From contig CAVQYR010000001.1 in assembly GCA_963718235.1 (NCBI GenBank), positions 1,440,001 through 1,504,000 of the forward strand: 64,000 bases of DNA, written 5' to 3'. Under the pieces are notes generated by a model. That model was not told the origin of the DNA. It did not search any database and saw only the letters and a list, made by a program, of their open reading frames with translations. Position numbers and translations under genes: made by a program. This document shows, piece after piece, positions 49,830 through 52,284 of the stretch. Position 1 is the stretch's first letter. Each line of letters opens with the position of its first letter. The DNA is from an uncultured Actinomycetota bacterium (GTDB taxonomy: Bacteria; Actinomycetota; Actinomycetes; JAHEKZ01).

Positions 49830-50932
49830 GCGTCGTCGGCAGCCGGCTCGCCGGGCGGCGTCTGGACGTCGGCCCGGTCGGTGACCCCGGCGCCGTCGAA
49901 GGTCGCCATGTCCGCCAGGGCGCTCTGCGCGGCGCGGAGCACCGGGAGGGCGACGACTGCGCCGGTGCCCTCACCGAGCCGCAGTCCGAAGTCGACGATC
50001 GGCTCGAGCTGGAGCTTGCGCAGGGCCAGGTGGTGCGCCGGTTCCACCGATCGGTGCCCTGCCTGCCACCACGACGACGCCCGGAAGGCGACCCGGTGGG
50101 CCACGAGGGCGCAGGCACCGGACACGAGCCCGTCGAGCAGGACCGGGGTCCGGCGCGCGGCGGACTGCAGCAGCATCCCTGTCATAGCCGCGAAGTCGGC
50201 GCCACCACACCAGGCCAAGAGGTCGAGCGGGTCGGACAGGTGCGGACGGGAGTGCCGCATGGAGTCGCGCACGGCGGCGGCCTTGCGCATCCAGGCCTCG
50301 TCGTCCACTCCGGTCCCGCGTCCCGTCACTGCCACGGCGTCACTCCCGGTGAGCAGGGCGACGATCACCGCAGCAGGCGTGGTGTTGCCGATCCCCATGT
50401 CTCCGGTCAGCAGGATGTCCGCGCCCGCGTCGATCTCCTCGTCAGCGATCGCCATCCCGGCCCGGAACGCCTGCTCGCACTCGGCCCGGGTCAGCGCCGG
50501 TCCGACACTGATGTCGTCGCTCCCGCGGCGGACCTTGTACCGGGTGACCTCGGCCGGGAGGTCGTCGAGGTCGGCGTCGACCGACAGGTCGACCACCCGC
50601 ACCCCCACCGCGCTCACCCGGGCCAACGCGTTGACCGCGGCACCTCCGGCCTGGAAGTTGCGCACCATCTGGGCCGTCACCTCCGCGGGGTAGGCCGAGA
50701 CCCCACTACGGGTGACTCCGTGGTCGCCCGCGAAGACGACGACGCGCGCGCGGTCCAAGGGCCGCGGTGGGCACTGCCCCTGCACCGCCGACAGCCAGCT
50801 CGCCAGCTCCTCCAGGCGCCCCAGCGACCCAGGCGGCTTGGTGAGGTGCCGCTGGCGCGCAGTGGCCTCCTCGGCCGCCGCCTCGTCCGGGCGCTCGATC
50901 CGCTCGCGGACCTCCAGCAGGTCGACACTCAT
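49826..50932 (-). CDS. cobT: Nicotinate-nucleotide--dimethylbenzimidazole phosphoribosyltransferase
   Basis: [27 protein letters not shown] and LRLGEGTGA motifs. Confidence 0.96.
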
Positions 50933-52284
50933 GAAGGGCGCCTCCGGTCGAGGGAGAGGGTGCGTCCGGCCACGACGAGACGGACGTCGGTGCTGGCCTC
51001 GGCGAGGCGGGCGTTCAGCACCCCCTGCAGGTCACGGAAGGCCCGGCCGGACCATGTGGCCGGCACGATGCCCGAGCCGACCTCGTTGCTGACCCCCACG
51101 AGGTCACCCTTGGACGTGCGCCACGCCTCGACGACGGAGTCGATCCGCTTGATGGCCAGAGTCGTGTCCTGGGTCTGCCAGGCGTCGGTGTCGTCGAGCA
51201 CCCGGGCCAGCCAGGTCGTGAAGCAGTCGACCAGCACGACCTCGCCGACGCCCACCTGATCGAGGACCGACTCGAGGTCGGTGGTCTCGAGGGTGACCCA
51301 CTGCGCTGGCCGACGAGCCCGGTGGACAGCCACGCGCTCGGCCATCTCGGGGTCATCCACGGCCGCGGTGGCGACGTAGGTCACCCGCGCGTGGTCACTG
51401 ACGAGCTGTTCGGCCGCAGTCGACTTGCCCGAGCGGGCGCCACCGAGCAGCAGCACCCGGGACACCGGGGTCGGGTCCACGTGGTCGGTGCTGATCCGGG
51501 AGCCGTCGGGAAGCACCTCCGCCCCGACCTCGGCGAGGCGTCGCCGCAGGACGGGCAGGGGAGGGTTGTGGTGGCTGAGGTGCACGGCGACGACCCGCCC
51601 CCGCGGGCCGATCGCATCGCATGCGCGCAGGGCGCGGGACGTCGTCGCGAACGAGTCGAGGTCGTGGTGGTCGGTTCCGTGGCCGGTGCGCTCGCCGAAC
51701 GTCTCCTCGAGCAGCACGACGTCGAACCGTCGTCCGGCGACCGCGGTCCAGGTGGCGTCGGTGAACGGTCCGGTGTCACTGGCGTGGAACAGGCGGGCGC
51801 CGGACGACGACTCGACGTCGTACAGCAACGCGTCGCTCGAGGACTCCCCGTGGTGGGCGGCATGCAGGGCCCGGACCCGGTAGCCGTCCCAGTCGAGGAC
51901 GTCGCCGCCGGCCAGCGGGTGCAGGGTCACCGGGCCACCTGGTTCGACCCACGGCTCCACCTGGTCGAGGGCCGCGCCCGGCCCGGCGACGACGAGCGGC
52001 CGGGCTCGCTCGGCCCACTGGTGCGCCAGCAGGGCGAGCCCGTCGACGTGGTCGGGATGGGCGTGGGTGATCAGCAGCAGCCCGACGTCGTGCAGTGGTG
52101 CCCGGTGACGCTCCGCTGCCCTGGGGACGTCGGGCCCGCAGTCGATGAGCAGCCGGTCGTCGACCAGCGCCGAGGTGTGACCGCGGACGACACCTGCCCG
52201 TCGGGCGTCGAGGCACGACGGACACGAGCAGAACGGGTTGGGCCAGCCGTCGGCGGACCCGGTGCCCAGCAGGACGACGTCCAC
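50929..52284 (-). CDS. cobU: Fusion: PhnP-like metallo-beta-lactamase-fold hydrolase + adenosylcobinamide kinase/guanylyltransferase
   Basis: N-half [30 protein letters not shown]-half [24 protein letters not shown]; one continuous frame. Confidence 0.9.

Follow-up and report, generated by a model that had tools for sequence, protein, structure and literature searches.

A PhnP-like metallo-β-lactamase-fold domain fused to CobU: a candidate nucleotide-loop phosphodiesterase in a putative corrinoid-salvage operon of Actinomycetes

Why should CobU, an enzyme of cobamide nucleotide-loop assembly, carry a metallo-hydrolase at its N-terminus in an operon that also encodes a putative corrinoid importer? 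The question is raised by a gene encoding a 451 amino acid (aa) fusion of a PhnP-like metallo-β-lactamase (MBL) domain and CobU, which occupies positions 50929..52284 (-) of a 64,000 bp stretch of DNA (the window) from contig CAVQYR010000001.1 of an uncultured Actinomycetota bacterium. The answer we favour, tentatively and by analogy, is that the MBL domain may be a nucleotide-loop phosphodiesterase that feeds cobinamide-phosphate (Cbi-P) to the attached CobU, and so would be an analogue of CbiR with an unrelated fold.

The fused gene has a GTG start and is delimited by open reading frame (ORF), profile, homologue and translation evidence, and its reading frame runs from the MBL domain into the CobU domain with neither a stop nor a frame change. 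The only profile families that match the protein in Pfam are MBL families and CobU; it does not belong to the CbiR superfamily (apurinic/apyrimidinic (AP) endonuclease 2, TIM-barrel), and neither the CbiZ domain PF01955 (Pfam) nor the histidine phosphatase fold (PF00300 in Pfam, TIGR03162 in NCBIfam) matches it. The C-terminal domain (aa 277–451; 50929..51456 (-)) aligns with the CobU structures 1c9k and 7tm8, matches PF02283 over aa 277–444 with 171.4 bits against a cut-off of 27 (profile positions 1–167 of 168), and passes the CobU equivalog NF004469 with 163.6 bits (cut-off 161). It contains a CobU P-loop, GGARSGKS (aa 281–288; 51421-51444 (-)), and H321 (51322-51324 (-)), which lies opposite the second histidine of the "HH" pair of Salmonella CobU (1c9k); a histidine of this pair is the residue that is guanylylated in the Salmonella enzyme. 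The P-loop and H321 are invariant across 37 fused sequences. Judged from its sequence, the C-terminal half is thus an ordinary CobU, a predicted adenosylcobinamide kinase/adenosylcobinamide-phosphate guanylyltransferase, complete with P-loop and aligned histidine like the CobU of Salmonella (1cbu/1c9k) and CobP. The difference lies in the roughly 270 extra N-terminal residues; the solved CobU chains that were matched have 179–202 residues and no comparable extra domain.

These extra residues form an MBL-fold domain (aa 1–268; 51481..52284 (-)), delimited by alignment to PhnP and by Foldseek, with a Lactamase_B_2 match at aa 44–235 (68 bits). Its translation includes the motifs CSCPSC (aa 19–24; 52213-52230 (-)), HAHPDH (aa 74–79; 52048-52065 (-)), LEETFG (51694-51711 (-)) and HLSHH (51568-51582 (-)). 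The initial annotation had described an in-frame MBL-CobU fusion with intact CxCxxC and HxHxDH motifs, and the ORF, the profiles and the translation all agree with that description. The closest solved relative by sequence is Escherichia coli PhnP (3g1p), to which the MBL domain aligns end to end (E value 3.9e-8). H144, D170, H206, H235 and H238 fall opposite the PhnP His, Asp, His, His and His, and the aligned residues presumably have the roles of their PhnP counterparts, namely metal ligands, general acid and fourth ligand of the three-cysteine (Cys3) site. In 10 MBL-only and 37 fused sequences C19, C21, C24, H74, H76, D78, H79, H144, D170, H235 and H238 are all invariant; H206 is invariant in the 10 and at least 90% conserved in the 37. 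The metal-binding and acid residues are therefore fully or nearly invariant in spite of only about 50% overall identity, and this is equally so in the stand-alone copies. An AlphaFold2 model of the fusion, built with the 37 fused homologues as input, has a mean predicted local distance difference test score (pLDDT) of 87.7 and a predicted template modelling score (pTM) of 0.63. Its top Foldseek match is again PhnP 3g1p (E value 1.2e-15, target-normalized template modelling score 0.78, about 25% identity), solved CobU structures are also among its best matches, and further down come PqqB, a "diphosphatase from the PhnP family" (6b9v), RNase Z, YhfI and Apyc1. An ESM Atlas search with the MBL domain returned only generic Lactamase_B_2/Apyc1 clusters, and docking of CobU aa 274–451 against MBL aa 1–268 gave no answer (score 0.00, mark 0.32) and is not used either way.

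The N-terminal half thus looks like a binuclear metallo-phosphodiesterase of the PhnP clade that has a structural metal site (Cys3His) of its own, its activity being predicted from the residues present. The full PhnP-type MBL residue set was found (HxHxDH, His, Asp, His, the general-acid His and the Cys3His site). It shares with E. coli PhnP (3g1p/3p2u), the phosphoribosyl 1,2-cyclic phosphate phosphodiesterase of the carbon-phosphorus (C-P) lyase pathway, the MBL fold and every aligned feature from the N-terminal CxCxxC with its late His to the HxHxDH, His, Asp, His and His, and differs in being fused or linked to CobU in an operon annotated without phn genes. The PhnP equivalog TIGR03307 gives 46.9 bits over aa 1–239, far under its cut-off of 272.25, and there are no phn genes among the eight annotated genes of the operon (ECF, cobT, cobS and SCO2321/2322 genes), a genome-wide phn search not having been made. 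On this score and gene context we reject the possibility that the domain is the true PhnP of a C-P lyase operon.

A profile search yielded 7351 proteins at E ≤ 1e-3. Next in rank after the CobU-linked proteins is a tier of stand-alone proteins of roughly 270–300 aa that score 160–200 bits; their sources are Paenibacillus, Cohnella, Bacillus, Anaerolineae and Bathyarchaeia, and certain of them carry the name PhnP or "carbon-phosphorus lyase" in the source records. When 117 MBL domains were placed in a quick maximum-likelihood tree, 56 of these second-tier stand-alone PhnP-like proteins lay on one side of a branch and all the CobU-linked MBLs lay on the other (Shimodaira–Hasegawa-like approximate likelihood ratio test, SH-aLRT, 81). 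The PhnP-like stand-alone proteins of Bacillota, Chloroflexota and archaea are thus a clade separate from the CobU-linked domain. We note that this large stand-alone family (proteins P0341-P0416 and P0417-P0534) is its nearest outgroup. Within the top tier, counting well-supported branches gives at least 9–10 switches between the fused and the alone state, and the tree as drawn has 17; certain "alone" rows may represent gene fragments derived from short metagenome contigs. Among the 150 representatives listed from the profile search, two, P0288 (585 aa) and P0299 (612 aa), have the MBL domain fused to a CobT-like (DBI_PRT) domain and no CobU.

A search with the full protein gave 4531 matches at E ≤ 1e-3 among 8000 scored candidates, and the best 120 of them all have both Pfam domains and lengths of 433–484 aa. 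The matches include a 333-member Rhodococcus cluster, one member of which is R. erythropolis PR4 BAH36066.1, annotated merely as CobU. When the MBL part was the query and lengths were restricted to 132–420 aa, stand-alone orthologues of about 55% identity were found in Dietzia, Blastococcus, Mycolicibacillus, Prescottella and Aeromicrobium. Scanning a single genome of each species yielded 489 relatives, and the locus counts that follow are for the best 80, all of which carry Actinomycetota names. The MBL domain and CobU are fused in one frame at 72 of these loci, the MBL stands alone at 7, and one locus is cut by a contig end. The recurrence of both domains in the best 120 matches, the 72 fused loci and the recurrence in the class sample described below lead us to reject a sequencing or assembly artefact, one of the two outcomes that the initial annotation had said would refute its proposal.

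The genes directly upstream of the MBL at these 80 loci suggest a link to import. An S component gene of the energy-coupling factor (ECF) importer type is found there at 33 loci and a BtuD-like ATP-binding cassette (ABC) ATPase gene at 20; there is no transporter at 23, and the contig ends at 4. Downstream of the 33 ECF-type loci, cobT is present in 21 and cobS in 27, some of these loci being limited by contig ends. The stand-alone MBL gene of Dietzia adjoins the final gene of a Peripla_BP_2/FecCD/ABC-ATPase (BtuFCD-type) operon, with the ATPase ORF ending where the MBL ORF starts, and the genome has two CobU matches, both of them outside the 16.8-kb MBL locus; the same was true of all five genomes with a stand-alone MBL that were tested, in that CobU is encoded outside the fetched MBL locus. 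At a shared position upstream of the BtuF-like gene, three of four Rhodococcus/Dietzia loci have a full-length but sub-threshold match (24.5–26.8 bits) to the cobalamin riboswitch family RF00174. At the Dietzia natronolimnaea locus (L045, 5016-8819) the BtuF-like, FecCD and ABC-ATPase genes lie directly before the MBL gene and the riboswitch-like match is at about 4990-5140; at two Rhodococcus loci (L035 and L013) a riboswitch-like match and a BtuD-like ATPase gene lie upstream of MBL-CobU. Finally, a slot between GroEL and an aldo-keto reductase (seen in L028 and L040) is occupied by MBL-CobU in Mycolicibacter (L040, L044) and by a lone MBL in Mycolicibacillus (L028, L047), which suggests that in the latter the CobU half was lost and an intact MBL was retained.

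The distribution of the domain was examined in two genome samples. It occurs in only 3 of 151 genomes of an even phylum sample (G000 included), and in 58 of 201 genomes (40 of 123 genera) of a sample of the window's class, counts from the latter including genomes flagged as unpublished (G241, G228, G234, G223 and G206). CobU is present in 140 of the 201, and 58 of those 140 have the MBL domain directly upstream; conversely, in each of the 58 genomes with the MBL domain, CobU follows directly downstream on the same contig (adjacency was read by eye from position tables), and the MBL domain is absent from all 61 CobU-less genomes. CbiB, which we used as the marker of de novo or CbiZ-type synthesis, is found in 80 of the 201. 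Among CobU-bearing genomes with CbiB, 17 have the MBL domain and 62 lack it, and among those without CbiB 41 have it and 20 lack it. The domain is therefore commoner in the absence of CbiB (41/61, 67%, versus 17/79, 22%), for a naive odds ratio of 7.5 among relatives that are not independent of one another. Tallies by family agree with this: MBL is frequent and CbiB scarce in f1, f57, f68 and f73, and the reverse is true of f3, f52, f54, f60 and f67. In a separate set of 50 named MBL-bearing genomes, CbiB is missing from 23 of the 27 that are not Mycobacteriales (24 of the 27 have ECF-type loci), a count subject to the incompleteness of metagenome-assembled genomes.

The host genome itself (3.17 Mb in 2 contigs, 95% complete) has a single CobU, one PduO-type adenosyltransferase and five B12-binding domains over the cut-off. 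Genome-wide family searches found no CbiB, CbiZ (PF01955) or CobA/CobO, which bears out for the whole genome what the initial annotation had said of the operon, that it has no cbiZ or cbiB. With B12-binding domains present and these genes missing, the organism is a corrin auxotroph that relies on imported corrinoids. No BluB scores above the cut-off in this genome (best 24.9 bits). The same annotation had noted the lack of a cobC, and this holds for the operon; the genome, in contrast, encodes seven CobC-like histidine phosphatases, all of them under the TIGR03162 cut-off, of which the best candidate is a 372-aa RNase H + His_Phos_1 fusion with 183 bits (C1:1385538-1386656; L002 1015-2133 (+)). 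This is the architecture of Rv2228c, the predicted α-ribazole phosphatase of Mycobacterium tuberculosis according to a 2025 review (PMC12713380).

We read the 9-kb operon around the fused gene (leader, two envelope proteins, ECF importer, MBL-CobU, CobT and CobS, in a window of 70% G+C) as one for corrinoid import and nucleotide-loop rebuilding. Downstream of the fused gene are CobT, the nicotinate mononucleotide:base phosphoribosyltransferase (49826..50932 (-); PF02277 440.9 bits, TIGR03160 426.6 bits), and CobS, the cobamide synthase (49047..49829 (-); PF02654 144.5 bits), and both the fused gene-CobT and the CobT-CobS junctions are ATGA stop/start overlaps. Upstream, only 7 nt separate the GTG start from the stop codon of the ECF transporter S component (52292..53092 (-); PF12822 50.3 bits), for which a corrinoid substrate is suggested by context. 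This is preceded by a fused ECF A-A' ATPase of 549 aa (53113..54762 (-)) with two ABC_tran domains and 294.9 bits, below the cut-off, to TIGR04521, and by an ECF T-like membrane component whose start is not fixed (54781..55800 (-); PF02361 CbiQ 21 bits, below the cut-off) and which is kept in the same position in related loci. When the S component was compared with the PDB, no corrinoid (CbrT-like) S component matched and FolT was the only match (E value 0.039). Thus the position between an ECF importer and cobT-cobS that the initial annotation had given is correct, and the corrinoid specificity it assigned to the importer remains an inference, as no solved corrinoid S component was matched.

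Further upstream lie an SCO2322-family protein of 308 aa with a Pro/Gly-rich C-terminal part (55893..56819 (-); NF040672 158.3 bits, cut-off 85) and an SCO2321-family membrane protein gene (56841..57975 (-); NF053823 110.5 bits, below the cut-off). The latter is in two frames: tblastn with the single 379-aa ORF of locus L016 matches it in two pieces, in frames -2 and -3, with the junction, an apparent frameshift, near 57526-57539, and it is either truly frameshifted (a pseudogene) or the product of an assembly error. Genes of the two families often occupy the interval from the riboswitch to the ECF genes (here at 55893-57975 (-), at 2340-4035 in L016, and in many other ECF-type loci), and the SCO2322-family gene is upstream of the ECF genes in many ECF-type loci. 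A literature search on SCO2321-2325 found nothing relevant; these uncharacterised proteins could be candidates for corrinoid capture in the envelope. About 120 nt before the SCO2321-like start is a partial cobalamin-riboswitch-like leader (58099..58178 (-)), which matches model positions 45–169 of RF00174 with 26.5 bits, against a gathering score of 31.5, and an E value of 0.0016; an Rfam scan of the window found no riboswitch match at the gathering score. At the equivalent place, RF00174 is above threshold in two of eight related loci scanned, the ECF operons of L016 (32.9 bits) and L087 (36 bits). Since the match is sub-threshold here and above threshold in those two, the placement of the operon "under a B12 riboswitch" in the initial annotation is probably right for the family and weakly shown for the window, where, moreover, two further genes stand between the leader and the ECF genes.

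On the other side of cobS the window has a 141-aa ORF with an N-terminal membrane anchor (48620-49045 (+)), which lies between cobS and a GcvT-like ORF (47404-48504 (+)), and then a leucyl-aminopeptidase-like ORF (45832-47313 (-)) and a dihydrolipoamide-dehydrogenase-like ORF (43610-45073 (-)); the names in this adjoining region (43610-48504) were judged from the translations only. The last three resemble the M. tuberculosis cobT-cobS neighbourhood.

What, then, might the MBL domain do? Three independent associations tie it to imported corrinoids: its fusion to CobU (rarely to CobT), its linkage to two unrelated types of importer, and its enrichment in salvagers; in addition, the importer-linked operons have a cobalamin-riboswitch match upstream that is above threshold in two and sub-threshold in others. 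The domain looks, from its conserved residues, like a working PhnP-clade metallo-phosphodiesterase that has been recruited to nucleotide-loop assembly. Enzymes of the PhnP/RNase Z/Apyc1 clade cleave between phosphorus and an oxygen of the ribose. In the scheme that we favour, the operon would import complete cobamides and the MBL domain would hydrolyse the phosphodiester of their nucleotide loop, with a ribose hydroxyl as the leaving group by analogy with the MBL clade (RNase Z, Apyc1 and PhnP). The products would be (adenosyl)cobinamide-phosphate and an α-riboside; the attached CobU would guanylylate the Cbi-P, and CobT would activate the preferred base, which CobS would then join to it. We infer the substrate, the bond that is cleaved and the hand-over of the product to CobU. 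CbiR establishes that remodelling can work by cleavage to Cbi-P and α-ribazole, with CobU, CobT and CobS as the only enzymes required afterwards (Mok et al. 2020, PMC7733943).

Several observations weigh against this scheme. At 23 of the 80 loci no transporter gene is directly upstream, 17 of the 58 MBL-bearing genomes of the class sample have CbiB and are likely producers, and CbiB is present in all 23 MBL-bearing Mycobacteriales tested. In such CbiB-bearing producers a cobamide-cleaving enzyme would need substrate selectivity against a futile cycle. Conversely, the domain is missing from 20 of the 61 CbiB-less, CobU-bearing genomes and is thus dispensable for salvage. Members of the PhnP clade with characterised substrates act on small cyclic phosphates and nucleotides, and the PhnP-family structure 6b9v is titled a diphosphatase. 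In the window, the riboswitch match (26.5 versus 31.5 bits) and the lack of a CbrT-like match for the S component also count on this side, as does the absence from the host genome of a BluB above the cut-off, which would make cobalamin-directed remodelling dependent on a base from outside.

It is conceivable, if rather unlikely in our judgement, that the domain acts on some other phosphodiester or anhydride of the pathway, such as a cyclic phosphate of α-ribazole, adenosylcobinamide-GDP (AdoCbi-GDP; in proof-reading or recycling), or the GDP and pyrophosphate by-products of CobU. PhnP is its nearest relative by both fold and sequence, Apyc1-type phosphodiesterases and the 6b9v diphosphatase are among the structural matches, and a role in CobU's own reactions would explain the strict co-occurrence with CobU equally well. 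Such a CobU helper, however, is not expected to stay with an importer when CobU is elsewhere, as in Dietzia, nor to be enriched in CbiB-less genomes, and hydrolysis of AdoCbi-GDP would reverse the CobU reaction. The initial annotation had offered replacement of CobC as its alternative, in which the MBL domain would strip the 5'-phosphate from adenosylcobalamin-5'-phosphate or α-ribazole-5'-phosphate in the last step of loop assembly. The operon indeed has no cobC and no match in the genome reaches the TIGR03162 cut-off; its fusion partners, CobU and in two representatives CobT, assign the domain to the nucleotide-loop pathway; and the natural substrate of PhnP is a 5-phospho-α-ribosyl compound, like α-ribazole-5'-phosphate. 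We nevertheless consider this improbable. The enzymes of the clade are diesterases or anhydride hydrolases rather than monoesterases, and the Rv2228c-type RNase H + His_Phos_1 protein elsewhere in the genome weakens the assumption that CobC is absent. Producers and salvagers alike should need a terminal phosphatase, yet the domain is biased towards CbiB-less genomes, and the Dietzia copy sits with an importer and not with cobS or cobT.

More improbable still is that the domain has no catalytic role in B12 metabolism, being either an appendage of structural or regulatory use or a PhnP-like housekeeping enzyme whose fusion was accidental and has persisted by inertia. The arrangement of the two domains in the model, with its pTM of 0.63 and mean pLDDT of 87.7, is not confident, which leaves some room for such a view; against it stand the near-invariance of the metal-binding and acid residues at about 50% identity, stand-alone copies included, the restriction of the domain to CobU-bearing genomes in the class sample, and the branch (SH-aLRT 81) that separates the CobU-linked MBLs from the 56 stand-alone PhnP-like proteins. 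Taken together, importer adjacency, CbiB-less enrichment and the CobU link fit the processing of imported cobamides better than the replacement of CobC. The processing role put forward in the initial annotation is accordingly strengthened as to the link with import and loop assembly, the conserved catalytic positions and the CbiB-less enrichment, and the reaction itself would follow by analogy.

Compared with CbiR of Akkermansia muciniphila (PMC7733943), the domain would be alike in its proposed reaction, its metal dependence and its position beside cobU/cobT/cobS; CbiR is an AP endonuclease 2 superfamily member, our domain one of the MBL fold, so that there is no homology, and the domain is a candidate, and widespread, non-homologous analogue of CbiR with a proposed activity. 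CbiZ, an adenosylcobinamide amidohydrolase, likewise initiates corrinoid remodelling or salvage, but it cuts an amide bond and needs CbiB afterwards, and the host genome has neither. CobC, the α-ribazole-phosphate/adenosylcobalamin-5'-phosphate phosphatase, and the Rv2228c-type RNase H/CobC proteins are also phosphate hydrolases of this pathway, but they are monoesterases of the histidine phosphatase fold, of which the host genome has a candidate elsewhere. The cobamide-remodelling enzymes named in Mok et al. 2020 (PMC7733943) are CbiZ, CbiR and Vibrio cholerae CobS. It is possible, though we hold it with slightly less assurance than the reaction itself, that the MBL domain represents a new class of them, a CobU-coupled nucleotide-loop phosphodiesterase structurally unrelated to these three. 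No description of the domain or the operon was found in the open-licence papers searched, and an earlier mention is possible; public annotations give the fusion as plain CobU and the stand-alone form as "MBL fold metallo-hydrolase" or PhnP.

Genome-based predictions of which bacteria make, salvage or remodel B12 rest on a short list of marker genes, and the domain occurs in about two fifths of the CobU-bearing genomes of the class and in two thirds of those unable to make the corrin ring. If it cleaves cobamides, Rhodococcus, Dietzia, Nocardioidaceae, Nanopelagicales and many uncultured lineages would be re-scored from "cobinamide salvagers" to remodellers. Should it instead prove to be the missing terminal phosphatase, a different gap in the pathway would be filled. 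Orthologues occur in cultured, tractable strains such as Rhodococcus erythropolis PR4 and Dietzia. The phosphodiesterase reading, if true, would mean that the CbiR reaction has been solved a second time by a non-homologous protein, and would give an example of fusion between an enzyme and the one that acts after it in its pathway; many Actinomycetes of soil and freshwater would then actively remodel foreign cobamides instead of merely salvaging cobinamide, and models of corrinoid exchange in soil and freshwater would change.

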